A stretch of 24,000 nucleotides of DNA from an uncultured Clostridia bacterium. GTDB taxonomy: Bacteria; Bacillota; Clostridia; Oscillospirales; Ruminococcaceae. This document shows positions 4,077 through 23,744 of the stretch, piece after piece. The position numbers and the translations under genes are program-made. The stretch is from the NCBI GenBank assembly GCA_947586185.1, contig CANPXN010000011.1:1-24000 (forward strand). The letters are read 5' to 3'. The stretch's first letter is position 1, and every line of letters begins with the position of its first letter. The notes beneath the pieces were generated by a model. It did not search any database. It was not told where the DNA came from and saw nothing but the letters and a program-made list of their open reading frames with translations.

Positions 4077-4196
4077 TTGTAAATTTAGGGTACACCCTAT
4101 TTTAATAGATTATATTTGCCGTTAAAATGTAAAAATAGAATTGCATTTTATATTCTTTTACAACTTGTAAATCACGTTATGAATCTATTTTTACAA
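4077..4196. promoter_or_regulatory. res/operator-like repeats upstream of the resolvase gene
   Basis: 14-bp palindrome TAGGGTACACCCTA (4086-4099). Four copies of TTGTAAA/TTTACAA (4077-4083, 4157-4163, 4165-4171, 4190-4196), including the dyad TTTACAA-C-TTGTAAA. Confidence 0.35.
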
Positions 4197-5833: not shown

Positions 5834-6010
5834 TTATGTATTATGGTAGCCTTTAGGCTCCTCGCCTCTTTTCCTTAATTCCTCACGCATAGCCTCAACA
5901 GATACGCTTGCAGGTGTACCCATATTACAGCTAACTTGCATCCATATATAATTCTTTAATTGCTCAGTTGTCCATTTTGCTGCTTTGTCTAATTCCCATT
6001 GATGAATCAT
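5834..6010 (-). CDS. 58-aa hypothetical protein, first gene of the leftward operon (below the ORF-track cutoff)
   Basis: My own translation: MIHQWELDKAAKWTTEQLKNYIWMQVSCNMGTPASVSVEAMREELRKRGEEPKGYHNT*. GGAGG (complement of 6021-6025) lies upstream, and the gene sits directly downstream of the leftward consensus promoter. Confidence 0.55.
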   Translation of the reverse strand: MIHQWELDKAAKWTTEQLKNYIWMQVSCNMGTPASVSVEAMREELRKRGEEPKGYHNT

Positions 6011-6061
6011 AATAAAATTACCTCCGTTTTGGTTTTGTGGTTTTCGTTTGTTTCTGTTTAT

Positions 6062-6090
6062 ATTATAGCACTAGAATCTAGTGCAGTCAA
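6062..6090 (-). promoter_or_regulatory. Leftward consensus promoter with an operator filling its spacer
   Basis: On the - strand: TTGACT (6090-6085), 17-nt spacer, TATAAT (6067-6062). The spacer is exactly operator site 1 (6068-6084). Confidence 0.7.
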
Positions 6091-6152
6091 TATGTAATAA
6101 TACACAAGATTATAGTGCCATATTTGTGCAAATTCACACTTTATTCTAGTGT
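6068..6152. promoter_or_regulatory. Operator array 1: three 17-bp dyads
   Basis: GCACTAGAATCTAGTGC (6068-6084), ACACAAGATTATAGTGC (6102-6118), ACACTTTATTCTAGTGT (6136-6152). Start-to-start spacing is 34 and 34 bp. A rightward extended -10, TGaTATAAT (6161-6169), follows site 3. Confidence 0.7.
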
Positions 6153-6200
6153 AAATAATATGATATAATATGTATAAATAAAGACTATGGAGGTATTATC

Positions 6201-6416
6201 ATGTCAATAGAATATAAAATAGACATTCTCAAAGCGTTAAAAGAAGCTGGGTACTCGTCTACCAGACTACGAAAAGAAAAGATTATCGGAGAAGCAACAA
6301 TCCAGAGATTAAGACATAAACAAAGTGTGTCATTCGACGTATTATCTAAAATATGTGATTTATTAAAGTGTCAAATTGAAGATATACTAGTATATAAAAG
6401 CAATAACACACTATAA
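6201..6416 (+). CDS. Cro/XRE-like small HTH regulator
   Basis: 71 aa. The region GYSSTRLRKEKIIGEATIQRLRHKQSVSFDVLSKICDLLKCQIEDIL resembles the short Cro/C1-type HTH proteins. GGAGG lies upstream. Divergent from the leftward operon. Confidence 0.85.
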   Translation: MSIEYKIDILKALKEAGYSSTRLRKEKIIGEATIQRLRHKQSVSFDVLSKICDLLKCQIEDILVYKSNNTL

Positions 6417-6491
6417 CCTAGTGTTAAAATTAACAAATAGTACACTTGGATATTGTGTAATATGTCAATTGACTACACTGGAAGATAGTGT
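6408..6491. promoter_or_regulatory. Operator array 2: three 17-bp dyads
   Basis: ACACTATAACCTAGTGT (6408-6424, overlaps the HTH gene stop), ACACTTGGATATTGTGT (6442-6458), ACACTGGAAGATAGTGT (6475-6491). Spacing is 34 and 33 bp. Confidence 0.7.
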
Positions 6492-6497
6492 TATAAT
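6469..6497 (+). promoter_or_regulatory. Rightward consensus promoter with an operator filling its spacer
   Basis: TTGACT (6469-6474), 17-nt spacer equal to operator site 6 (6475-6491), TATAAT (6492-6497). Confidence 0.7.
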
Positions 6498-6553
6498 ATA
6501 ATCAAGATAAAACAAAAAAACAAGCAACAGCTTGAAAGAAAGGTCTTGATTAT

Positions 6554-7051
6554 ATGTTAAAATGGTTTAAGGAATGCGCAAATGTTGAGGAAGCCAAAGA
6601 GTTATATAAAAAGCTTTGTAGAAAGCATCATCCTGATATCTCAGGCTATGACAGCACAAGCACAATGCAGGAAATAAACGCAGAGTTTAAAGAAGCGTTC
6701 AACACTTTAAAGAACAAGCACAGAGCCAACAGCAAGGAGCAGGAAAATAACAACACAGCAGCAGAAACGCCGGAAGAATTTATGGATATTATTAACGCTC
6801 TGATTAACTGTGAAGGTCTTGAGATTCAGCTTGTAGGCTGCTGGATATGGCTGCAAGGCAATACTTACCCGTATAAAGATATAATCAAATCTTTGGGGTT
6901 TAAGTGGGCATCAAGGAAAAAGGCATGGTATTTCAGACGTGAAGAAGATGCTTGCAGAAACAGAAAGAACATGAGCCTTGACGAAATCAAGAGCAAGTAT
7001 GGCTGTAAAACATTCGGCACTGCTTCAATGCCAAAGTTGGTAACAGTATGA
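6554..7051 (+). CDS. J-domain (DnaJ-like co-chaperone) protein
   Basis: The N-terminus EEAKELYKKLCRKHHPDISG...EINAEFKEAFNTLKN contains the HPD tripeptide in a J-domain helix II/III context. The C-terminal half (GCWIWLQGNTYPYKDIIKSLGFKWASRKKAWYF) is not recognised. Confidence 0.8.
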   Translation: MLKWFKECANVEEAKELYKKLCRKHHPDISGYDSTSTMQEINAEFKEAFNTLKNKHRANSKEQENNNTAAETPEEFMDIINALINCEGLEIQLVGCWIWLQGNTYPYKDIIKSLGFKWASRKKAWYFRREEDACRNRKNMSLDEIKSKYGCKTFGTASMPKLVTV

Positions 7052-7070
7052 ACATAACGATAATATAAAA

Positions 7071-7107
7071 AGGGATTGCAAAAAAGAAATTGCAGTCCCT
7101 TGTTTTT
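7071..7107. terminator. Bidirectional rho-independent terminator
   Basis: AGGGATTGCA (7071-7080) / TGCAGTCCCT (7091-7100), one G-U pair. T-run at 7101-7107, A-run before the stem. Confidence 0.7.
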
Positions 7108-7506
7108 CACCTATATTATAGCTTTTAAACGCTCTGCAGTGCGCTGTAAGCCGTTCTAACGCTTTAATGGTAAAACTATACTATTAAAATTACAGTGGCT
7201 TATATAGCTTGCTAGTGCCTTTAAATCGCATTGCCGTTAAATTAAAGATAACATATAGTATATTATTCAATAATCATAATGCGATATAACGCTATCAGGA
7301 TGTATTGTAAGCCGTCTTGTAACAGTTGTGATATAAATTTACCCTGTTCACCTTGCCACCCTCAGAATGCCTATATGTTTGTATCAGGAGCAGGAGAGCA
7401 TGACGGGGGGTAGTTTACATTTTAAAAACCTGCTAATACTGTCTATATGGCTATAGTTGTTCCATTCTACTCTCGGCTGATTTTTTCACCACCGAAGCGA
7501 AAAATC

Positions 7507-7535
7507 TTGACAAAGGATATTCACAATGATACAAT
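7507..7535 (+). promoter_or_regulatory. Consensus promoter of the nuclease gene
   Basis: TTGACA (7507-7512), 17-nt spacer, TGaTACAAT (7527-7535). Confidence 0.65.
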
Positions 7536-7561
7536 AAATAAAAAAGTATTTGGGTGAAAGC

Positions 7562-7927
7562 ATGGATGAAAATTTTTTCGAGATAGGAACATTTAAACAA
7601 GAATATAATCAAAAATTAAATACAAATTTGCCGTGCTTAAAAATTGTTCAGTCTAAAGGTTTAGAAAAACATATTTTAAAAAGACATTCTAATCAAGTAC
7701 ATTATTTAAATCGTGTTAAAGAGATTTTAGAAACCCCTGATTATATTGGTTCTAATCCTAAAGAGCCTGATAGCATAGAACTAATTAAAATATATGAAGA
7801 TAATATCTTGATTGCAATTAAGTTAGATTATAGTAATGGATATTATTATTTAGCTTCTTTGTATGATATAAGTGAAGGGAAAATAAACAACAGATTAAAT
7901 TCAGGAAGATTGAAGAAATATACTTGA
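7562..7927 (+). CDS. Stand-alone PBECR-type (phage Barnase/EndoU/colicin E5-D/RelE-like) putative RNase
   Basis: KGLEKHILKRHSNQVHYLNRVKEILETPDYIGSNPKEPDSIELIKIYEDNILIAIKLDYSNGYYYLASLYDISEGKINNRLNSGRLKK fits the remembered pattern H...RH, PDY(I/V)G, SIE(L/F)(I/V)K, (A/V)(I/V)K(L/V), Y..S.Y, sGrL. I moved the start to ATG 7562. Confidence 0.7.
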   Translation: MDENFFEIGTFKQEYNQKLNTNLPCLKIVQSKGLEKHILKRHSNQVHYLNRVKEILETPDYIGSNPKEPDSIELIKIYEDNILIAIKLDYSNGYYYLASLYDISEGKINNRLNSGRLKKYT

Positions 7928-7952
7928 CTTTTAGTAGTGATTGATGTATAAT
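7924..7952 (+). promoter_or_regulatory. Perfect consensus promoter overlapping the nuclease stop codon
   Basis: TTGACT (7924-7929; the TGA stop 7925-7927 lies inside it), 17-nt spacer, TATAAT (7947-7952). Confidence 0.7.
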
Positions 7953-7957
7953 GAAAG

Positions 7958-8102
7958 TAACATAATAATATAATATTATTGGTTGTTTGAGGTCAGAAAG
8001 GCTCCTGACACTCTCTTCGGAGAACCTGAGATGATGGGTACGCCGTCCATCCAAATAACCACAAGCAAGAAGGAAAGTGATTATTTTGCTTTCCTTCTTT
8101 TT
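7958..8102 (+). ncRNA. Candidate ~145-nt structured RNA with an 80-nt cloverleaf-like core
   Basis: Lies between the promoter (7924-7952) and the terminator (8067-8102). Hand fold of 7981-8060: closing helix GGUUGUUU/AAAUAACC; arms GUCAG/CUGAC, UCUC-UUCG-GAGA and GAUGGG/UCCAUC. No Rfam family recognised. Confidence 0.5.
8067..8102 (+). terminator. Rho-independent terminator of the candidate RNA
   Basis: AAGAAGGAAAG (8067-8077) / CTTTCCTTCTT (8089-8099) is a perfect 11-bp stem running into a T-run that ends at 8102. Confidence 0.8.
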
Positions 8103-8202
8103 ATACTAAGATTATAAATCAATACTAGATTAAATTAAACCATTAGCAGACAGAAATAGTATAATCGCTTTCCATTTTTGGAAGGCGATTTGTCGCTGAG
8201 TA

Positions 8203-8231
8203 TTGACAGCCAGAATAAAATCTGATATACT
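8203..8231 (+). promoter_or_regulatory. Promoter of the RHH gene
   Basis: TTGACA (8203-8208), 17-nt spacer, TGaTATACT (8223-8231). The -10 is itself part of the first repeat. Confidence 0.6.
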
Positions 8232-8377
8232 GATATCATAAGGTGTATCAGTATATAGAAGTAGTGGTGATTGCAGTTATGATATCAGTATATTGAAATA
8301 ATAGTGATATCAGTTGAGATATTAGTATATACACAATTTCTGATAGCTATACTGATATTAAGTGTGATAGCAGTATA
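8222..8377. repeat. Array of about nine CTGATAT/ATATCAG heptads in mixed orientation (iteron/operator array)
   Basis: CTGATAT at 8222, 8230 and 8352; CTGATAG at 8340; ATATCAG at 8282 and 8307; ATATTAG at 8319; GTATCAG at 8245; ATAGCAG at 8367. The longer unit TGATATCAGTATA (8280-8292) recurs forward (8305, 8365; partial 8246) and inverted as TATACTGATATCA (8226-8238, 8348-8360). Confidence 0.75.
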
Positions 8378-8389
8378 GGAGATGTTATT

Positions 8390-9037
8390 ATGGCTAAATC
8401 TTCAACTAAGGCAAAGTCTGAGTATAATAAGAAAAACTATGTACAGGCTTCGTTGCGATTTAAAAAGGGCGAGAAAGAAAAGTGGCAAGAAGAAGCTGCG
8501 AAACAGGGCGAAACCTTTAACGAGTATATCATCAAGGCTTTGGAGATGAGGCGAGAGCAGGACAACACAAATCAAGACGGCTCAGATACACAAAAGGCAT
8601 TGGAGAATACTTTCCATATTGATAACATGGATTTGCTTAGTAAATTACCGATATCAGAACTGATAGCATACATTAACGAGGCTGTTTCTGAGAAGAGAGA
8701 AGCAGATAAGAAAAAACAGGAATATGCTTTATTAAAAGAATCGGGATTTTTTGATAGGGATATTGAGGAACTTAAGGAATCTAAATGTATGACTTCTGAT
8801 TATTCTTTTAATTACATAGTATCAAGCATACGTTATTTAAATTATGTAGCTGCTGATAAGTATGGTAAACTATATCATATGATAGAAGCCTATCCTTCTG
8901 TCGATGATTTTTTGAAAAGATGTGGGTATACGTCCGATTCTGAAGAATCAAAGAATTATAAAAAAAGAGCAATTAATGAGTTATTCAAAGTGTTCAATCT
9001 TGAGAGAGAGAAAGCATTAAGGGAATTATCTGAATAG
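8390..9037 (+). CDS. Ribbon-helix-helix (CopG/Arc/omega-like) DNA-binding protein with an unknown C-terminal domain
   Basis: The N-terminus KKNYVQASLRFKKGEKEKWQEEAAKQGETFNEYIIKALEMRRE has a beta-strand/helix/helix RHH pattern. The remaining ~150 aa are not recognised. Confidence 0.7.
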   Translation: MAKSSTKAKSEYNKKNYVQASLRFKKGEKEKWQEEAAKQGETFNEYIIKALEMRREQDNTNQDGSDTQKALENTFHIDNMDLLSKLPISELIAYINEAVSEKREADKKKQEYALLKESGFFDRDIEELKESKCMTSDYSFNYIVSSIRYLNYVAADKYGKLYHMIEAYPSVDDFLKRCGYTSDSEESKNYKKRAINELFKVFNLEREKALRELSE

Positions 9038-9057
9038 TTACACAAGTATATATTTAG

Positions 9058-9094
9058 CCGTTACTCCATTACAAGGGGTAACGGTTATTTTTTT
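9058..9094 (+). terminator. Rho-independent terminator
   Basis: CCGTTAC (9058-9064) / GTAACGG (9078-9084), followed by ATTTTTTT. Confidence 0.7.
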
Positions 9095-9415
9095 CGATCT
9101 CACAATAATATATCAAGGGGAGGGGGTATGTTTTCGTTTGAAAAAGTTAAAGTACCTATATATTAGAGTATAGGGGGAGATTTTCGCCCAAAAGTTTTTT
9201 GTCTTGCAAACAGCACTAACGCACATATGTGGGTATAAAAATTTTGGCTGTTAAAGGGGGATAATACAAGTAATTACTATTCCTCCCTTTAATGGACAAA
9301 AAAATTGAACGTGTATAACTGCAATAGTAATTAAGATAGTATATACGTCTTTTCAAGGTGGACGAAATGGCAACCTTGAAAACTTCAAACTATGCGGTAA
9401 AACACAGACCCTTTG

Positions 9416-9736
9416 TTATTTTTGCAAGGTCCCTCTGAAATTTCGGAAAAAGCGTGTCATTTGTGCGGATTTTTGAGCAAGTGTCCGAATTTCGGACGGC
9501 TGGTTTAAGACAACATCAAAAATTGAACGTCCGCCAAGTGGACTATCAATACATTCGTCATAACGCACCCTAAAAAAATCTATTCCTTCAGTAAACCTAT
9601 CTTTGTTATCATTAAATCTCTTTCTTGCAGTCCCATCAGGTCTGTTATGCACCATATCAATATCCTTAAAAGTTACTACACGGCGATTGTTGTGCTCTGC
9701 TATGTCAGAGGAAGATTGCCGCAGAGTATGTGGCAT
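9416..9736 (-). CDS. ORF6N-domain protein, possibly a fragment
   Basis: RRVVTFKDIDMVHNRPDGTARKRFNDNKDRFTEGIDFF matches the ORF6N (antirepressor-associated) motif. The C-terminal half looks atypical. No good SD. The longest ORF form (to 9772) uses TTG and overlaps the ParB fragment. Confidence 0.45.
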   Translation of the reverse strand: MPHTLRQSSSDIAEHNNRRVVTFKDIDMVHNRPDGTARKRFNDNKDRFTEGIDFFRVRYDECIDSPLGGRSIFDVVLNQPSEIRTLAQKSAQMTRFFRNFRGTLQK

Positions 9737-9972
9737 TGTGTGGTAACTCTCACGGGGGCGATAGAAAATCAAATTCCAAGAATCGGAACTTGAAATCGCT
9801 GGAAGAAATTTCTTTCCAACTTGGTATTTCTCTCACAAATCTAACTGATATGCTTGCCATAGAGCGCAAGCTTACCCCTGAAGTCAAGGAAATGCTTGAC
9901 AACGGCGTGTTCACTAAAACAACAGCAAGCAAGATACTCACCAAACTCTATTACAATACTATGCCAGAATAA
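9730..9972 (+). pseudogene. Internal fragment of a ParB/KorB-like protein (HTH portion only)
   Basis: NSHGGDRKSNSKNRNLKSLEEISFQLGISLTNLTDMLAIERKLTPEVKEMLDNGVFTKTTASKI is the GGDRKS plus HTH segment that normally follows a ParB N-terminal domain. No ParB N-domain precedes it. It has a GTG pseudo-start and overlaps the ORF6N gene. Confidence 0.5.
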
Positions 9973-10170
9973 TGCTATTGCTCTTTTCTACTTTGGCTGA
10001 AATACATACTATTAGAAATTTACGCAAAATAAATGCAAATAAAGACACTTACCATTTTAGGGGTAACTTTACCCTTAAAACAGTAAATGCCTTTAAATTC
10101 TATTTAGATTTGAGTATTTCTAATAGGATATGGGAGCAGGTCTATATACACGATAATTAATATAAACTTA

Positions 10171-10257: not shown

Positions 10258-11871
10258 ATGGAGAGTATGATAATGGAAGAAAAGATTATAAAGGTAAATA
10301 TATCGATTTTAAAGCCTCACCCCGAAAATGAGAAAATCTATGGAGAAAATGAGGATATTTCAGAATTGAAAGAATCCATATTGACGGAGGGATTATCAAC
10401 ACCTTTAAAAATTACCGATAATAAGGTTATTATATCGGGACATCGAAGATGGAAGTCCTGCTGTCAGCTTGTAAATGAGGGGCATTCTGAATTTTCTGTT
10501 GTTGACTGCATTGTTGAACACTATCAAAATTCAGAGGCAGAATTGAAAGACATAGTGCTTGCCAATGCTCATAGACAGAAGAATTATGAACAGATCGCCC
10601 GTGAAGCTTTGACTTTATCCGAAATTCATCGTACAGAAGCTGAAAAGAGAATGAAATTAGGAAAGAAGCTTGACCCTATGATAAATTTATCACAGGGTAG
10701 TACTCGCGAAATGACAGCAAATGATTTGAAAAAATCCGGAGTGAAAATATCGGAAACAAATGTTAGCTGCTTGATAAATGCAATTAAATCTATTGATTCG
10801 TATTCTGCAAACGGGAAATTATTAGAAGCATCATTAATACAGCGAGAGTTACACAAGAATGTACCTAATTATAGCACGATAAGTAATTTAACAAAAAATA
10901 TGGATAAACTCTCAGAAAAGGACAAGCAAGAACTTTTTGATAATAAAATTACTATTAATAAGATACTAAAGAGAGATGATTCTAAACAAGCTATAAAAGC
11001 AGAGGCAACAGAAAACAAGAAACAATTATGCGATAAAATAAATGACGATTATACTGTTGGTATGCTTTTTCAAGATGAATTACATTCAACAGGTATTCAT
11101 GTTGACATAACAAAATCAAAATTAGAGAAATTGTGGAGGATCGTCGGTAATAATCAGGTATTTTCGTTCTACCCGACAGAGCTAATTAATTCATTGAAAA
11201 CAATGATTCGTGATATGAAAGATAACTTTGAATACTTGAAAATTGTTAATTCAATGTGTGATATTGAACTTATCAAAGAAATAGAGCCTATAACAAAACG
11301 TGAATTTTGGAAGAAATTAAATCATTTTAATTACTCAACAGATAAACTGAATATATTACAGGATAAGGTTATATTCACAATTTTAAGAACGTTAGCATTA
11401 TTATGTGATGCTTACGTGTGGCTATATCCTAATGAAGATGAGATATATTGCTATGATTATAACAATAATGCTGAATTGTTGAGCTTTGCAAGGGACTTTA
11501 AAATTGACAGCAACAAGAAAATGATAAATAGCTTAATTAAGCTGTACGAACAATTTGATGACATTCTCAAAAGACTTAAAGACTTGACGGAAAAGGACTT
11601 ACGATTTTTTAATGATTGCAATATTCCTCATTTAATAAAAACATTGGATTATTTTAATTCTTTGGAGGATAACGGAATCCTTTTTGACGATATTCTTATA
11701 GAATTGCTTGACCCTGAACAGCGTAGGGCTTTTAATAATGTTACTGACGATTCGATGGATATTTATGAAACATGGGTATATTCTGATAAAAATGTAGAAA
11801 ATAGGCAGGACTTCTTAAATAATCTTGTTGACGAATATGTTGATAATCTTGACGATAAAGATGAAGAGTAA
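10258..11871 (+). CDS. ParB/sulfiredoxin N-terminal-domain protein with a long unknown C-terminal extension
   Basis: ILKPHPENEKIYGENEDISELKESILTEGLSTPLKITDNKVIISGHRRW contains the ParB box with GHRR. About 350 aa of unrecognised sequence follow, ending in an acidic tail DNLDDKDEE. ATG 10273 is the better-spaced start relative to GGAGAG (10260-10265). Confidence 0.85.
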   Translation: MESMIMEEKIIKVNISILKPHPENEKIYGENEDISELKESILTEGLSTPLKITDNKVIISGHRRWKSCCQLVNEGHSEFSVVDCIVEHYQNSEAELKDIVLANAHRQKNYEQIAREALTLSEIHRTEAEKRMKLGKKLDPMINLSQGSTREMTANDLKKSGVKISETNVSCLINAIKSIDSYSANGKLLEASLIQRELHKNVPNYSTISNLTKNMDKLSEKDKQELFDNKITINKILKRDDSKQAIKAEATENKKQLCDKINDDYTVGMLFQDELHSTGIHVDITKSKLEKLWRIVGNNQVFSFYPTELINSLKTMIRDMKDNFEYLKIVNSMCDIELIKEIEPITKREFWKKLNHFNYSTDKLNILQDKVIFTILRTLALLCDAYVWLYPNEDEIYCYDYNNNAELLSFARDFKIDSNKKMINSLIKLYEQFDDILKRLKDLTEKDLRFFNDCNIPHLIKTLDYFNSLEDNGILFDDILIELLDPEQRRAFNNVTDDSMDIYETWVYSDKNVENRQDFLNNLVDEYVDNLDDKDEE

Positions 11872-12975: not shown

Positions 12976-12993
12976 TATTGTGAGGTGATGACT

Positions 12994-13269
12994 ATGGAGA
13001 ACAAAAAACGAGTATCCGACATTATTACTGCAACAGATATTAATAGTTGGAATAAGGGCGATGTTGTTACAATTTCCGCAGGCTGCGGAGTTGGCAAAAG
13101 CTACTTTATAAAGAATATTCTTTATGCAAAAGCTAAAGCAGAAAATAAAAAAATACTAATGTTTGTACACAGATCAAAATGCTCCGATCAGTTTGAATTT
13201 GAAATTGAAAGCGCAGGTAAAACAGATATTATTGATATCAAAACATATCGTCTATCGAATATATCATAA
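12994..13269 (+). CDS. SF2 DExH helicase, N-terminal piece (Walker A)
   Basis: SAGCGVGKSY is helicase motif I. The ORF stops at 13267-13269. The start follows GAGGTG; the ORF track begins at GTG 12985. Confidence 0.7.
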   Translation: MENKKRVSDIITATDINSWNKGDVVTISAGCGVGKSYFIKNILYAKAKAENKKILMFVHRSKCSDQFEFEIESAGKTDIIDIKTYRLSNIS

Positions 13270-13289
13270 TCAATGGTCATGGTGTTTCT

Positions 13290-14516
13290 TTGGAAGATTA
13301 CGCATATATAGTATCGGACGAATTTCACTATTTCATAGAGGATTCGGGATTTAACTGCTACACAGATATATCATTTAATGCTATTATCAAATGTCGGTAT
13401 ACAGCAAAAATATTTATGTCTGCGACTGGGGATGCAATGCTGACTATGATAAATAAATATGTCAACAAAAGGAATATACATTCATATAGTATTCGCCCTG
13501 ACTATTCACATTTACGAAGTTTGAAATTCTTTTATCAGAAAGATACCATAAGAACGCTGGCATACAGATTCAAAGCTTCAGGTAAAAAGGCAATTTTTTT
13601 CATTCAGTCTGTAGCAGATGCACACAGTTTGTATAAGGAATTTCAAGACTGTTCCTTATTCCTATGTGGCAAAAGCTCTGAAAACGGCAAAAAATATTAT
13701 AACGATGTTGACGATGACAAAATCACACAAATGCTCACTGAACAGAAATTTGAGGAACAATTCCTGATTACAACTACTTGTTTTGATGCCGGAGCAAATA
13801 TAATTGATACGGAATTACATACTGTTGTAATTGATATAAAAAATATCAGTTCTTTAATTCAGTGCCTCGGCAGAAAAAGAAGTCAGGGAGCAGGTGACAC
13901 ACTTGATATATTTGTTAAGGCTGTATCAAACAGGCAAATCGGAGGTATGCGGTCAAAAAGAGTAGAAGGATTGAAACGGGCAGATTTTCTTTTAAAAAAC
14001 AATACAAGAGCGTATGTGGAGGAATATCCCCGTGACGATAATTTTAGTAAATTTCATCGGGCATTAATATATGATGAGCCTATGTCAAAGTCAAGAAAAA
14101 ACACCTGCACTAAAAAAGTAAATATGATGATATACGAAAAGTACAAGCTTGACATATCGCAATGTGATGAAATATTAAAGCTTGGTTATGCTCAATGTAT
14201 TGCCAATATTCTTCATTTTGGCAACGGCTACGGAAGGTATTATAAATTCTGTAACGAGGGTGATCTAAATGATTATTTGGAAATGCTTGCAGCTAATCAG
14301 ACAGTTATGCTTACAGCAGAAGATAAAAAGCCGTTTATTGAAAAGATGAATGTAAAGCATAATGGCAAACTTTTGAAAAGTAAGAATAGCTTAAACGCTG
14401 CTTTAGAGGAAAAGCATAAGCCATACAGAATAGAGGGATTTATGACAAATAGAGTTGTTGACGGAAAGAAAAAGAAATTTAAATCTGCATGGAAAGTGAT
14501 TAAGGTTAAAAAATAG
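13290..14516 (+). CDS. SF2 DExH helicase, C-terminal piece (motifs II-VI)
   Basis: VSDEFHYF (motif II, DEFH), MSATG (III), TTTCFDAGANI (V), QCLGRKRS (VI). This frame is already open from 13236 (YQNISSIEYIIINGHGVSLEDYAY), overlapping the end of the upstream piece. Confidence 0.8.
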   Translation: MEDYAYIVSDEFHYFIEDSGFNCYTDISFNAIIKCRYTAKIFMSATGDAMLTMINKYVNKRNIHSYSIRPDYSHLRSLKFFYQKDTIRTLAYRFKASGKKAIFFIQSVADAHSLYKEFQDCSLFLCGKSSENGKKYYNDVDDDKITQMLTEQKFEEQFLITTTCFDAGANIIDTELHTVVIDIKNISSLIQCLGRKRSQGAGDTLDIFVKAVSNRQIGGMRSKRVEGLKRADFLLKNNTRAYVEEYPRDDNFSKFHRALIYDEPMSKSRKNTCTKKVNMMIYEKYKLDISQCDEILKLGYAQCIANILHFGNGYGRYYKFCNEGDLNDYLEMLAANQTVMLTAEDKKPFIEKMNVKHNGKLLKSKNSLNAALEEKHKPYRIEGFMTNRVVDGKKKKFKSAWKVIKVKK

Positions 14517-19121: not shown

Positions 19122-22100
19122 ATGTCTGATAATAATAACGAATTGAACATTGAAATTAGAGCGGAGCTTGATATTGAAAAAAGCATTGCAAAAATTAACG
19201 CCGACTTGGAGAAAATAGAAGAACAAATTAAAGAGCTGGAGGTAAATGTTTCTTTAAATAAAGGCGATAGCTTGAAAAAAATCAATAATCAGATTGAAGA
19301 ACTGAATAAACAGAAACAGGATTTAACCGCAGAACTTAAATTAAATCAAGACGCTTTAAAAAAGCAGTACAAAGAAATTCAAAATAACAATGAAATATCC
19401 CTTGATATTGAAACCGACAAAGCGTCTAAACAGCTTTCAGGGATTAGCGGTAATATTTCAAGCGTTAATGCTGAAACTATGGGACTTGCTCATTCTTTCA
19501 AAAGTGCTTTTGCTAATATGGGTTTAGCCTTATCTACAGAAAGCATATTAAGAACTATTAAGCAGCTTGAAGAAGAAGCAACAGAGGCGGTAAAACTATA
19601 TGACAAGATGAGTACAAACCTCAAGATCATTACAGGCAAAAGTGATGTATCGGATTTGATAGGTAGCTATGCTGAAAAAGCACTGGATATGAAAGTGGAT
19701 ATCTCAGAGTACGAAAAGGCATCAGAGGTTATTCTCCGTGCCGGAAAGAACCTTGAAGAATCCAACCAATATACAGAAACAGCTATAAAATTAAGCAAAA
19801 CAGGATTTATTAATGCTGATGATTCAGCCGAAAATCTTCTTGTAATAGCTAATGCTTACGACCTCACGGCTGATAAGTTGGAAAGTGTTACCGATGCCCT
19901 ACTAACATTGGACACCTCTACTAACACAGAAGCCGGAGCATTGTCGGAAGCTATGTCAAAATCCGCAAAGAATGCTCAATTAGCTGGCTTATCATATGAA
20001 AAACTTGGAGCAATCATAGCTAAGTTAAAGGATTCAACCGGTAAGAGCGAGTCGGAACTCTCTACCAGCCTTAACCAAATATTTAATAGAACATATAGAG
20101 TCAAGCCAAACGCATATACTTTCGAGAATGAAGCCGGTGAAATTGAAAATCTATCAAAGCCTCTCTCGGATGTAGAGAAGATAATGAATCAGTTAGGAAT
20201 TTCTATTCGAGAGTCAAGTACTCGATTTAAGAGCTTTGAGGACATCATTTCTACTATTGCTCCTATATGGAAAGACCTTGATTCAGTAGATCAGAACGCC
20301 ATATCGAGCGTCTTCGCCGGGCAGCATAAAAATGTTTTCCTTAATTTGGTAAATGATTGGGACGAGATTAACGCTCTCACAAAAGAAGCCGAAAATAGTA
20401 GTGGAGCGACCGCCTCTAAATATAATAGCTACCTTGAATCTATCGAGAGCAAGAGCGCAGCACTTTCAACTGCCACAAAAGAGTTGTGGAATAATCTTGT
20501 CCCTGATAATACTGTTGCTAATTTGACAGATGCGACAACTTCACTTATTCAGTTCGTTGACGAATATGAGGTTTTACAGAATATAGCCAAAACTGGTCTT
20601 GTGTACGGCTTAGCAAAAGGCTTTATATCAGCTAAAAGTGGATTTGCCGGAATGGTGAAAGACGTAAAAAATGTGTCTACAGCATTTTCACAGTTGGAGG
20701 CTGTACAAAAATCTTCGTTTGGTACTAATGAATACGATGCATCTATTCAGAATTTGGGAGACACTATTTCAAATCTATCAGACAAACAGGCAAAATTGGT
20801 ATTAAGTACAAAATCATTAAGTAAAAAACAGAGATTAGCAATTATTGAAGCTTCAGGAGTAGAAAAAGCCGAGGCAAAAGCAAAGTTGGAAACATTAGGA
20901 CTTGCTAAAGCACAGGAAACCGCTGCAAACAGTACTTTCAGCTTAAAGGGCAGTATGAAATCGCTATGGGCAGTAATGAAGGCTAATCCTATCGGGGTGT
21001 TAACGGTTGCGTTTGGACTCATTTCTACTGGCATATCCATTTATAAGCAGAAGCAGGAAGAAGCTATACAGTCTGCTAAACAGTCCGCACAGGAAACAAG
21101 CGATTATATAGATTCATTAAGTGGATTGAAAGATAAGTACCTTGAAATTGTTGACAGTGAAAACTCAGTTTCAGAAAAAACAAAAGAGCTTAACCAGTTC
21201 AAGCAAGAGTTAATAGAAACATACGGATTTGAGAAAGATGTAATTGACGAGTTAAACTTGTCTCGTGAACATGGCGTTGAATTACTCGATAAAGAAGCTC
21301 AGAATAATGCACGATCAAAGCGTAATGAATTTTATGCACAGAATGATAAAGCTATTGACAAGGCTATTGAAAAAGTTGAAACAAATCAGGGTATTGAAGT
21401 GAAGACATCAATAGTCCGTACAAACGAAATATCCGACGATATTAAAAATATTTTTTCTAATATTTCATACAAAGATGCGCTTGGTGGCAATGAATGGTCT
21501 TTTAAAATAGATGCTAACAATGTTTTTGACGAATATGAAAAGATAAATTCTATTATAGCAGACTTGCAAAACAGAAGCTTAAACTCTTCAGAAACAAATT
21601 TGTATAAAGCGTTGGTGTCAAAGTCTAAAGAATTAAAAGAAATTATTGATGATTACGGAAAAACCTATAACACATATTATGATTATAAGGCACAAGATTT
21701 GTTTTATGATTATATTGATAAGTTTGGAGACGCTTCGCAATTATCAGGTAAAAAGCTAAAAGATTGGAAACAGAGCTTAATAGAAACAGCGGACGGCAAT
21801 ACTGTGCTGGAAGAATCGTTGACTAATTTAATTGATAAGATTTATCAGTTTGATAATGCAGAAAATAAAGTAACTTCCATTAGCGGTTTAGATGTAAATA
21901 CAGATGATATTTCAAAGTCCCTTGAGGAATACTCAAACCAAATATCTGACTTCATTTCCGAAAAAGAAAAAATAGATGCTGCTCTAAAGGAGCAAGAAGA
22001 AAATGGCGGTATTTCCATTAAAACTGCTTTTGACCTATCCACAAGCGGTTATCAGTCTGCAATACAGTTTGACAGAGAAACAAACTCTTATAAATTGTTG

Positions 22101-23744
22101 CGTAAAGAAATTGATAAGGTTGCAAAATCAAGACGTGCCGAATTAAAGGTAAAGCTTGAAAGTGAAAAATCCCGTCTTACTAAGAATAATTCAGATGAGC
22201 TTGAAAATTGGCGTAAAAACACTGGTAGAACTAAAGATGATGTGTTGTATCAGGCTAAACTTAAAGAATATAATGCATCTGTACAGGATATAACCTCAAG
22301 CTATGATCTATACATATCAATGTTGGAAAAAGCCGATTTTGCTACATCAAATTTCAGCGATACAGTTTCAAAAACCAATCAGGACATAGAAAAGTATTCC
22401 GAAAACATTTCAAAGATAAGCAATTCAAAGTCGACTGTAAAATCGGCACAGGAAGAACAAGAAAAGTTTGGACGATTATCTATTGACACCATAAAATCAC
22501 TGCATGAAGCAGGATTGAGTGGAGCAATGTCGTACAATGAAATGACTGGCGAAACATATCTGCTTGTAGACGCTATTGACGAATTAACAAGAGCGCAGAT
22601 TGAAAATCAAAAGGTTGATATAAACAAATCCATTACAGAAACCACAAATAAAATAGCTGAGGCTTCCGAAAGATTAAGAAACATAGGAAACCCTTCTGAT
22701 GCTTACACAGCTAATATGGTTTCAGGACTGAATCAGAACATAGCTCAGTGGCAGAGCCAGCTTGACGAGCTTGGTATTCAAAAAATGGAGCTTGGTTCAT
22801 TGTTGTTCTCCTTTGAAACCGATGATGAATCAACAAAACAGTCTGCCGAAGAAGCAGCTGAGAAAGCTCTCGAAGAATACATTAATTCTATCAAGGAAGC
22901 CTTTGATAAAGAGAAATCAGACCTTGACCATTTATTAAACATGGACGTAATTTCTCAAGAAGAATATTACAACAGATTGTTTGGCTTAAATGAGAAGTAT
23001 TTCAAAGGCAAAACAGAACTTCTTGACGAGTACAGACAGTATGAGGAAGAAGTTTACAAGGGGCTAAAGCAAAAGCAGATTGATGCTATTCAGGAACAGA
23101 TAGATGCTCTTAAATCTGTTAATGAGGAAAAGCAGGAAGAAATCGACCTTGAAAAAGCTAAACAAGCTCTTGAAAATGCAAAACGCAATAAGACTATTAG
23201 TGTATATGATTCAGAGCGTGGTTGGATTAATGAAACCGACAGAAAAGCTATTGATACGGCTCAGAAAGAATATGATGATCTTGTTCTGAATGAGAAAATC
23301 GAAGCTCTTGAAAACATGATTGACGCTATTGAAAATGGCACTAATACAAGCCATAGCCTTGATGAGAGTGTTGACGTTATTCAGCAGGTAGGAAATATTA
23401 TGAATGGCAGTCAGGAAGATTTTATAAATAATATTAAGAGCACTCTTATTAATCATGGTGAAAATCCAATTGATTATATAAATCAATTAAACTCATTGCC
23501 TATTGATAATGTGGTATCTGACCAGATGTTAAGAAGCATTCAAACAATGCAGGAAAACATTTATACAACTAATAATAAAAGAATGACCGTTAATATTGAT
23601 AAAGTTGTTGCAGATGATCCTATGAGATTTGCAGAACAGATGGAACAGATAGCTAACAAAAGCTTTGATACAAAATTCATGCCAGCAATGAACGATTTGG
23701 CAGAGGATATTAAAAGGCATAGAGCTAATCATTCCAGTTATTAA
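19122..23744 (+). CDS. Phage tail tape measure protein (TP901-family core)
   Basis: 1540 aa with extensive coiled coil. The core region is LSKTGFINADDSAENLLVIANAYDL...EAGALSEAMSKSAKNAQLAGLSYEKLGAIIA. A hydrophobic segment (PIGVLTVAFGLISTGISIY) is present. Confidence 0.9.
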   Translation: MSDNNNELNIEIRAELDIEKSIAKINADLEKIEEQIKELEVNVSLNKGDSLKKINNQIEELNKQKQDLTAELKLNQDALKKQYKEIQNNNEISLDIETDKASKQLSGISGNISSVNAETMGLAHSFKSAFANMGLALSTESILRTIKQLEEEATEAVKLYDKMSTNLKIITGKSDVSDLIGSYAEKALDMKVDISEYEKASEVILRAGKNLEESNQYTETAIKLSKTGFINADDSAENLLVIANAYDLTADKLESVTDALLTLDTSTNTEAGALSEAMSKSAKNAQLAGLSYEKLGAIIAKLKDSTGKSESELSTSLNQIFNRTYRVKPNAYTFENEAGEIENLSKPLSDVEKIMNQLGISIRESSTRFKSFEDIISTIAPIWKDLDSVDQNAISSVFAGQHKNVFLNLVNDWDEINALTKEAENSSGATASKYNSYLESIESKSAALSTATKELWNNLVPDNTVANLTDATTSLIQFVDEYEVLQNIAKTGLVYGLAKGFISAKSGFAGMVKDVKNVSTAFSQLEAVQKSSFGTNEYDASIQNLGDTISNLSDKQAKLVLSTKSLSKKQRLAIIEASGVEKAEAKAKLETLGLAKAQETAANSTFSLKGSMKSLWAVMKANPIGVLTVAFGLISTGISIYKQKQEEAIQSAKQSAQETSDYIDSLSGLKDKYLEIVDSENSVSEKTKELNQFKQELIETYGFEKDVIDELNLSREHGVELLDKEAQNNARSKRNEFYAQNDKAIDKAIEKVETNQGIEVKTSIVRTNEISDDIKNIFSNISYKDALGGNEWSFKIDANNVFDEYEKINSIIADLQNRSLNSSETNLYKALVSKSKELKEIIDDYGKTYNTYYDYKAQDLFYDYIDKFGDASQLSGKKLKDWKQSLIETADGNTVLEESLTNLIDKIYQFDNAENKVTSISGLDVNTDDISKSLEEYSNQISDFISEKEKIDAALKEQEENGGISIKTAFDLSTSGYQSAIQFDRETNSYKLLRKEIDKVAKSRRAELKVKLESEKSRLTKNNSDELENWRKNTGRTKDDVLYQAKLKEYNASVQDITSSYDLYISMLEKADFATSNFSDTVSKTNQDIEKYSENISKISNSKSTVKSAQEEQEKFGRLSIDTIKSLHEAGLSGAMSYNEMTGETYLLVDAIDELTRAQIENQKVDINKSITETTNKIAEASERLRNIGNPSDAYTANMVSGLNQNIAQWQSQLDELGIQKMELGSLLFSFETDDESTKQSAEEAAEKALEEYINSIKEAFDKEKSDLDHLLNMDVISQEEYYNRLFGLNEKYFKGKTELLDEYRQYEEEVYKGLKQKQIDAIQEQIDALKSVNEEKQEEIDLEKAKQALENAKRNKTISVYDSERGWINETDRKAIDTAQKEYDDLVLNEKIEALENMIDAIENGTNTSHSLDESVDVIQQVGNIMNGSQEDFINNIKSTLINHGENPIDYINQLNSLPIDNVVSDQMLRSIQTMQENIYTTNNKRMTVNIDKVVADDPMRFAEQMEQIANKSFDTKFMPAMNDLAEDIKRHRANHSSY

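Follow-up and report, generated by a model that had tools for sequence, protein, structure and literature searches.

A solo PBECR3 nuclease gene with a skipping-rope RNA as its near-obligate partner in a prophage-like element of an uncultured Clostridia bacterium

The DNA analysed here, referred to as the window, comprises positions 1 to 24,000 of the forward strand of contig CANPXN010000011.1 (GenBank assembly GCA_947586185.1), from an uncultured Clostridia bacterium of the Ruminococcaceae. At 7507-8105 the window carries a self-contained cassette of two genes, both on the forward strand; the element around it is prophage-like, and the cassette belongs to its early/regulatory region. The upstream gene (7562-7927, with its ATG at 7562 and its TGA at 7925-7927) encodes a solo nuclease of 121 amino acids with the BECR fold, assigned to PBECR3 by Pfam. 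The downstream gene specifies a small structured RNA, the core of which (7982-8059) was identified by an Rfam covariance match as a skipping-rope RNA (RF02924). The two were compared with homologous loci collected around relatives of the nuclease, namely 80 genome loci and 43 IMG/VR loci with proteins 30-72% identical to the window protein, in which the RNAs were located with a covariance model trained on 18 RNAs.

An earlier sequence-only reading of this DNA had placed the 121-residue protein among the PBECR-type nucleases, and Pfam agreed: the match to PBECR3 (PF18812) had an E-value of 5e-22, scored 78.4 bits where the cut-off is 30, and covered profile positions 3-115 of 115. PBECR2 was matched more weakly, and these two families were the sole Pfam matches at E <= 10. 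The AlphaFold2 model of the protein, made with 27 homologues, reached a predicted local distance difference test (pLDDT) score of 94.8 and has the BECR-type layout, with helices and then a sheet of four or five strands. Its best Foldseek matches in BFVD were MuF C-terminal and polyvalent-protein nuclease domains, with template modelling (TM) scores of 0.64-0.74 and E about 2e-6, and its best structural matches in the PDB were the HigB, BrnT, RelE and YoeB toxins, which were weak (E 7e-3 to 0.1) and uniform in type. A sequence search for solved structures of the nuclease returned none. Close and distant subfamilies alike conserve H37, K76, Y96 and G115, and H37 is invariant in both alignments; conservation of the C-terminal Ser/Thr does not extend to the distant subfamily. 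The conserved His, Lys and Tyr, together with structural neighbours that are RelE, HigB, BrnT and PBECR proteins, make it likely that the protein has a toxin fold and is active as an RNase. Iyer et al. 2017 (PMC5512222) defined this clade as phage BECR RNases and, in the passages available of that article, noted solo forms in phages and mobile elements. A representative search returned 598 clusters at E <= 1e-3, almost all of them solo proteins of 90-170 amino acids. For the label 'spbA', carried by the Streptococcus suis homologues, no literature was found.

The RNA had been folded by hand into a four-way junction, and its assignment to a known Rfam family had been named as a point that would count against the proposal. 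The Rfam search did assign it to a known family, with a match to 7982-8059 of 70.9 bits (gathering threshold 36.7, E 1.5e-15) over model positions 1-80 of 80; the hand-drawn fold held, in that the Rfam model and the minimum free energy fold both gave essentially the same helices. P1 pairs 7982-7989 with 8052-8059, with an extra pair G7981-C8060, and P2 pairs 7992-7996 with 8005-8009. P3 is formed by 8011-8015 with 8020-8023 and 8028, around a UUCG loop and an ACCU bulge, and P4 by 8033-8037 with 8047-8051. The minimum free energy fold of 7959-8110 consists of this four-way junction and the terminator that follows it, at -46.3 kcal/mol (z = -4.66), and none of 200 shuffled sequences folded as well. 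The complementarity noticed earlier between the loops of P2 (8000-8002, GGC) and P4 (8042-8044, GCC) is the loop-loop pseudoknot annotated for the skipping-rope family (PMC7779021).

Covariation next to homologues of the nuclease, which the sequence-only reading had named as a further check, is extensive. Across 73 distinct sequences, 97.9% of the cells were paired and double changes occurred at 20 of the 26 pairs, a result that none of 500 shuffles reached. Every helix is backed in this way, as is the pseudoknot, whose third pair alternates between U-A (45 sequences) and C-G (25), with a single U-G and no unpaired case. P3 is judged peripheral because it varies, from a 4-bp stem capped by a tetraloop up to long insertions (loci L081, L105, L251 and L252 of our collection). 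Within a protein subfamily, on the other hand, the strands of the junction and the loops of P2 and P4 are near-invariant; between subfamilies they differ, with loop sequences GGAAAUGGYUCC and AUACRCCGCC in the window-type set and GGAACRGGCAGCC and AAYUGUCAMCC in the distant set. The 28-codon open reading frame (ORF) at 8031-8117, for which protein-level conservation would have spoken for a peptide instead, is not conserved: its equivalents in homologous loci encode 1-59 amino acids (median 15). A peptide from this or from a 44-codon ORF across the RNA was rejected on the grounds of the non-conserved ORF length and the covarying stems. In two loci, L010 (3430-3654) and L009 (3430-4265), a canonical skipping-rope is followed by a divergent tandem variant, the loops of which appear able to pair as a longer pseudoknot (GUAGCA with UGCUAC); in L009 the canonical copy is duplicated too, which places three RNAs behind one nuclease gene.

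Skipping-rope was described, as a terminator-flanked motif, by Weinberg et al. 2017 (PMC5737381). In the accessible text of that article it is counted among highly conserved bacterial and phage RNAs credited with a likely 'sophisticated biochemical function', and a "compelling association" with a nearby protein gene is reported, the protein being unnamed and no functional hypothesis being offered. The sequence-only reading, which knew of no described PBECR-RNA pairing, was overstated to the extent that an association of this RNA with a protein was already on record. No functional study of skipping-rope was found in the literature searched.

The two genes of the cassette have separate promoters. 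The consensus promoter proposed for the nuclease gene is present at 7507-7535 (TTGACA-17-TACAAT, with TG before the -10 element) and agrees with the consensus at 11 of 12 positions. The promoter of the RNA, at 7924-7952 (TTGACT-17-TATAAT), is likewise present and likewise scores 11 of 12, so that it falls one position short of the perfect promoter that had been claimed; the TGA of the nuclease gene does lie inside its -35 hexamer, as had been seen. The intrinsic terminator thought to bound a short RNA is found at 8067-8105, where a 14-pair stem (8067-8099) is followed by TTTAT. From the predicted start to this terminator the transcript would be about 145 nt long, its 78-nt core being preceded by a leader of ~22 nt and followed by the terminator tail.

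This arrangement recurs in the homologous loci. Of 113 loci, 58 have an RNA promoter that matches the consensus at 12 of 12 positions and 44 one that matches at 11 of 12 (102 of 113 at 11-12), and these promoters often overlap the last codons of the nuclease gene, as in the window, while the nuclease promoters elsewhere are weaker and variable (7-12, mostly 8-9). The gap between nuclease and RNA is short, with a median of 45 nt, and mostly occupied by the promoter, so the gene transcripts probably carry the RNA as well. A crude scan found a hairpin and T-run after 51 of 74 homologous RNAs. With a dedicated near-consensus promoter plus read-through from the gene, the layout, as judged from sequence, probably enforces far more RNA than protein.

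The partnership between gene and RNA, proposed from the window alone, is upheld by the homologous loci. Seven of the 123 loci stop at a contig edge; in 114 of the 116 evaluable ones (74 of 76 genome loci and 40 of 40 viral loci) the RNA lies directly 3' of the nuclease on the same strand, an adjacency of ~98%. The two exceptions are L018, with an apparently intact nuclease gene, and L027, with a C-terminally altered nuclease. Even in a distant subfamily of ~25% identity, reached through the representative search, the RNA adjoins the nuclease in six of seven loci. The carriers include the S. suis prophage phiJH1301-1, where the RNA lies behind the 'spbA' homologue near the attachment (att) site, the Bacillus cereus plasmid pBAslCI14 and a 6,983-bp MobV plasmid of Bacillus velezensis (L253), in both of which the homologue is accompanied by the RNA. 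In L253 and in L246 the RNA and the nuclease gene are convergent, on opposite strands, and the RNA has a TTGAAA-17-TATAAT promoter and a terminator to itself; it must therefore be an independent, trans-acting RNA rather than an element of a 3' untranslated region (UTR). Placement in either orientation fits the description by Weinberg et al. 2017 (PMC5737381), as far as the accessible text of that article goes.

The proteins encoded around the cassette vary; they include XRE-type helix-turn-helix (HTH) regulators, tyrosine and serine recombinases and ImmA-like peptidases, that is, the lysogeny module of temperate phages. The surroundings of the cassette are lysogeny regions of prophages or stretches close to att, with other toxin-antitoxin (TA) genes such as RelB-YoeB (L249) and HicAB (L071) alongside. 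No protein-coding neighbour of the nuclease was conserved among the loci examined, and the window gene is monocistronic, behind the terminator of a DnaJ-like gene at 7070-7101, which leaves the RNA as the only candidate neutraliser. The results demonstrate that the nuclease and the skipping-rope RNA are true partners, near-obligate from the protein side.

From the RNA side the linkage is much looser. An IMG/VR pattern scan for the RNA alone returned 120 loci with 90 evaluable RNAs; the nuclease lies upstream of 29 of these, and the other 61 are without it. The nuclease-free RNAs follow a mixture of genes (integrases, tail-fibre-like proteins, amidases, MuF, portal, TnpB, other TA pairs and Abi_2), and their cores are closely similar to those of the linked RNAs, but they mostly lack a strong promoter within 80 nt (scores of 6-9 out of 12). 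The 107-kb Enterocloster phage CB473P3 carries one such copy. Clustering and Pfam scans for a second universal protein partner of the nuclease-free RNAs gave mixed cargo only; DUF3800 was absent from the 25 most frequent Pfam families in the scanned neighbourhoods, as were other PBECR families, and the C-terminus of a MuF protein encoded upstream of the RNA in L237 is without PBECR similarity. PemK-like toxins encoded 5' of the RNA in L162 and L181 were set aside as partners, the one in L162 having its own Panacea-domain antitoxin.

Several RNAs lie directly behind other TA cassettes, namely PemK with a SocA/Panacea antitoxin (L162, 6429-7387), PemK with a small ORF (L181, 6153-6915), HicA/HicB (L071, 4137-5167) and RelB-YoeB (L249, 327-1480), a placement that suggests either shared cargo hot spots or a broader link to RNase toxins. 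A second skipping-rope copy in L023 (4849-4928; 46.6 bits), divergent and GC-rich, directly follows the tyrosine integrase of the prophage, where this borders on a peptidase-like gene of the host; host-encoded skipping-rope genes might exist, even as attachment-site neighbourhoods. In L136, L189, L166, L208 and L226, RNAs without PBECR3 lie ~220 nt 3' of large nuclease ORFs on the same strand, which are TnpB-like (OrfB_IS605 or Cas12f-like TNB) in the first three and encode an RRXRR/HNH protein in L208. This spacing may reflect an insertion-site preference or coincidence.

The likeness of the RNA to a tRNA lies in its topology. In the consensus, P1 has 8 bp, 2 nt join it to P2, 1 nt joins P2 to P3 and 4 nt (plus the bulge) join P3 to P4, with no nucleotide before P1 closes. 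The linkers of the tRNA cloverleaf are 2/1/4-5/0, and the order and lengths of the linkers being so alike (2/1/4/0), the topology is similar to that of a tRNA. The predicted pairing between the loops of P2 and P4 would maintain a contact like the tRNA elbow and, as do the linkers, is compatible with an L-shaped fold. The identity of the RNA as a tRNA was nevertheless rejected: ARAGORN called 0 tRNA genes on it, and Rfam in E-value mode gave no match to a tRNA or tmRNA family on 7940-8110 at E <= 10. Skipping-rope has a tetraloop and no 7-nt loop on P3, and no T-loop consensus in its P2 and P4 loops of 8-9 nt, and neither a CCA nor any other conserved sequence was found after P1 in the homologous RNAs. 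That the RNA is a tRNA-like RNA is not supported, but it may work like a tRNA mimic.

The identity of the two components, their near-obligate linkage, the asymmetry of their promoters and their carriage by phages and small plasmids are directly established. As an explanation we tentatively prefer, at somewhat less than an even chance, that the cassette works as a type III-like toxin/RNA-antitoxin or abortive-infection module, made up of a metal-independent BECR-fold endoribonuclease (PBECR3) and the skipping-rope RNA. Transcription from the near-consensus promoter of the RNA, together with read-through from the gene, would let the RNA greatly outnumber the protein. The pseudoknotted four-way junction would then bind the RNase and keep it inactive, and may fill its substrate site as an uncleavable mimic of a cloverleaf. 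Should phage attack or loss of the element shut transcription off, the amount of RNA would drop and the freed RNase would cut cellular or phage RNA. Nuclease-free skipping-rope copies in other phages would serve as antidotes to the same RNase. Binding, inhibition, toxicity, the trigger and this antidote role are what we infer. Support comes from the toxin fold, the lack of a protein antitoxin, the promoters that favour an excess of RNA and the setting among plasmid and prophage cargo. It also comes from the one-sided linkage, in which a nuclease without the RNA is a rare exception while the RNA also spreads on its own, which would be the pattern expected if a toxin needs its antidote while the antidote can travel by itself. 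The more specific proposal of a new class of RNA antitoxin, in which a BECR RNase is silenced by an excess of cloverleaf-shaped substrate mimic and the phage copies (e.g. that of CB473P3) are counter-defence antidotes, has to be called doubtful.

Colicins D and E5 are BECR-fold tRNA anticodon nucleases with tRNA-mimicking immunity proteins. They offer a parallel, as a BECR RNase is curbed there by a co-encoded, substrate-shaped factor of the kind proposed here, but their inhibitor is a protein and here it would be an RNA. With the type III TA systems (ToxIN, CptIN and TenpIN) the cassette shares the combination of an endoribonuclease with a non-coding RNA, a design that would give more RNA than protein, and carriage by plasmids and prophages among defence cargo.

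The comparison with type III systems also brings out points that count against a toxin/RNA-antitoxin module. The toxins of those systems are ToxN/Kid-like, whereas the present nuclease has the BECR fold with RelE-like structural neighbours and, with only PBECR3 and PBECR2 matched in Pfam at E <= 10, belongs to none of the ToxN, AbiQ, CptN and TenpN families. Their antitoxin is an upstream array of 34-40-nt tandem repeats with a terminator before the toxin gene. Skipping-rope, in contrast, is one pseudoknotted four-way junction of ~80 nt with its own promoter, downstream of or convergent with the gene, and no tandem-repeat antitoxin array was found upstream of or within the module. These differences lower the case that the cassette is a ToxIN-like system, not the case that it works like one. 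The preferred explanation is further weakened by L018, where the nuclease gene is apparently intact and directly followed by a glycosyltransferase gene with no adjacent RNA, and by PADLOC, PHROGs and NCBIfam, none of which has a model matching the nuclease. Some nuclease-free RNAs follow complete protein TA pairs, as with PemK and Panacea in L162, so that some of the closeness to toxins may be due to cargo hot spots used by both. The single-stranded nucleotides of the RNA are very highly conserved, which Weinberg et al. 2017 (PMC5737381), in the accessible text, took as a sign of a 'sophisticated biochemical function' rather than of a mere plug.

Moreover, the asymmetry of the linkage and the excess of RNA are explained almost as well if the RNA is an obligate cofactor or a substrate of the nuclease. 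As a structural or specificity cofactor it would form an obligate ribonucleoprotein with the protein, and the complex would be the active species, recognising, for example, a particular cellular or phage RNA or docking on the ribosome. Near-obligate linkage and the extreme conservation of the junction nucleotides are in keeping with this, as are the loop sequences, which differ by protein subfamily in a manner consistent with specific recognition. The ribosomal A site is the target of the RelE-like relatives, and an RNA shaped like a tRNA could be of importance there. We nonetheless regard a cofactor as unlikely, as two thirds of the RNAs on viral contigs have no nuclease nearby despite sequences essentially the same as those of the linked copies, a stoichiometric cofactor needs no consensus-strength promoter beyond read-through, and the sole variable parts of the RNA, the P3 hairpin and the sequence of P1, are unlike a guide. 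Slightly less probable still is that the RNA has a phage-host role of its own and PBECR3 is an accessory enzyme for its processing, maturation or turnover. The asymmetry fits, given that an enzyme needs its substrate and the substrate need not have this enzyme; the RNA of the window has a leader and a tail around its core, and the nuclease-free RNAs, often found in late, lysis, head and integrase regions without a promoter of their own, must for that reason be excised from longer transcripts. A dedicated nuclease on a 7-kb plasmid is however hard to justify if host enzymes suffice in most phages, and the flanks of the core hold no conserved element resembling a cleavage site, the nucleotides after P1 being unconserved. 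Weinberg et al. 2017 (PMC5737381), in the accessible text, saw no self-cleavage of the RNA, in a test that did not extend to protein-dependent cleavage.

A decoy function would place the tRNA likeness at the centre: the RNA would titrate tRNA-binding proteins of the host or of rivals, such as anticodon nucleases and modification enzymes, and the nuclease would cut real tRNAs while sparing the mimic. The junction linkers and the loop-loop contact do recall the cloverleaf and its elbow, P3 at the 'anticodon' position varies in length and is capped by stable tetraloops, so that it offers no cleavable loop, and the immunity proteins of colicins D and E5 supply a precedent. Set against the missing tRNA model match and ARAGORN call, the lack of a conserved CCA and the absence of a T-loop motif from the loops of P2 and P4, which have 8 nt in the window and 9 nt in most RNAs, this function appears improbable. 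As for the gene and the RNA being incidental neighbours in shared prophage cargo hot spots, or the RNA being a cis element such as a 3' UTR or terminator, one could point to the many cargo contexts of nuclease-free RNAs, often near integrases (within 2.5 kb in 31 of the 120 RNA-containing viral loci), and to the second RNA copy of L023 at a prophage-host junction. But the ~98% adjacency with fixed geometry persists over 25-100% identity, several phyla, and phages as well as plasmids, and the opposite-strand RNAs with their own promoter rule out a cis role in a 3' UTR. Both readings are effectively excluded.

Among previously described RNAs and proteins, the closest relatives of the two components are their own families. 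The window RNA has the four helices, pseudoknot, conserved junction nucleotides, terminator and specific neighbour gene of skipping-rope and differs from the family in nothing structural; what is added here is that the partner is named as a PBECR3 BECR-fold RNase and the promoter/terminator architecture is quantified. The nuclease has the same fold and family, by sequence and structure, as the PBECR domains of phage polyvalent proteins (PF18812/PF18810; PMC5512222). Those were predicted to be injected effectors that cut host or CRISPR RNAs, with an RNA partner unmentioned in the passages available of that article, whereas the subfamily of the window consists of solo proteins of ~120 amino acids from prophages and plasmids that are tied to a structured RNA. 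The DUF3800-associated and drum motifs, according to the accessible text of Weinberg et al. 2017, are likewise highly conserved, terminator-flanked and linked to one protein family on either strand or side, but they are different RNAs with different proteins.

By gene content the window looks prophage-like: it encodes a serine recombinase (1236-2825), a Cro/CI-type HTH protein (6201-6416), an ORF6N anti-repressor-like protein (9416-9772), a ParB-like protein (10258-11871) and a tape measure protein (19122-23744). A megablast search of 6000-10000 against GenBank phages and PLSDB plasmids found no near-identical records. Between the terminator of the DnaJ-like gene and the nuclease promoter lie ~400 nt (7102-7506) without a convincing ORF, for which there was no Rfam match and no meaningful similarity in related loci, which share one 32-nt match only. 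Downstream of the cassette, a third strong promoter (8203-8231, TTGACA-17-TATACT) coincides with clustered palindromic ATATACTGATA / TATCAGTATAT motifs, probably autoregulatory operators, and with a 37-nt tandem repeat of 2.3 copies (8246-8331; whole region 8203-8395). Motifs and repeat stand just 5' of an ORF of 215 amino acids (8390-9037), the N-terminus of which resembles a ribbon-helix-helix DNA-binding domain by eye and the sole match of which is phrog_13890. These repeats were considered as a type III TA array and set aside, being palindromic, operator-like sites. At 12985-14516, adjoining ORFs of 94 and 408 amino acids give weak matches to helicase and Cas3-like C-terminal domains and may be two genes or one helicase gene split by a frameshift. 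Other RNA matches turned up in the homologous loci. In L253, a Bacillus-plasmid RNA (RF01691, 61.4 bits; 4089-4144) lies ~100 nt from the skipping-rope gene. Borderline matches to the S10-Clostridia leader in L002 (5920-5993, 40.8 bits) and L004 (4533-4611, 35.4 bits), against a threshold of 35.1, lie 1.2-2.6 kb from the module in loci of Ruminococcus/Clostridia metagenome-assembled genomes, and may mark prophage-host boundaries or be due to chance.

The RNA family, the protein family and the association of the RNA with some nearby protein are already known. Compared with the literature read, part of it in accessible passages only, what appears to be new is the identification of the partner, a PBECR3 RNase of the BECR fold, and the contrast between ~98% linkage from the protein side and about one third from the RNA side. 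The same appears to hold for the consensus promoter that is particular to paired RNAs, for the loci on plasmids or with the RNA on the opposite strand, and for the toxin/RNA-antitoxin hypothesis. Through the partner RNase, the near-obligate linkage and the pair-specific promoter, an orphan motif becomes a directly testable two-component system, for which the 7-kb B. velezensis plasmid and the S. suis prophages are tractable models. Should the antitoxin interpretation fail, the pair would still be a compact protein-RNA system worth structural study. If it is true, RNA-antitoxin systems would reach beyond the ToxN family and the stand-alone RNA copies in phages of gut Clostridia would be explained, and the proposed new class would supply a function for RNAs that have had no explanation since 2017.

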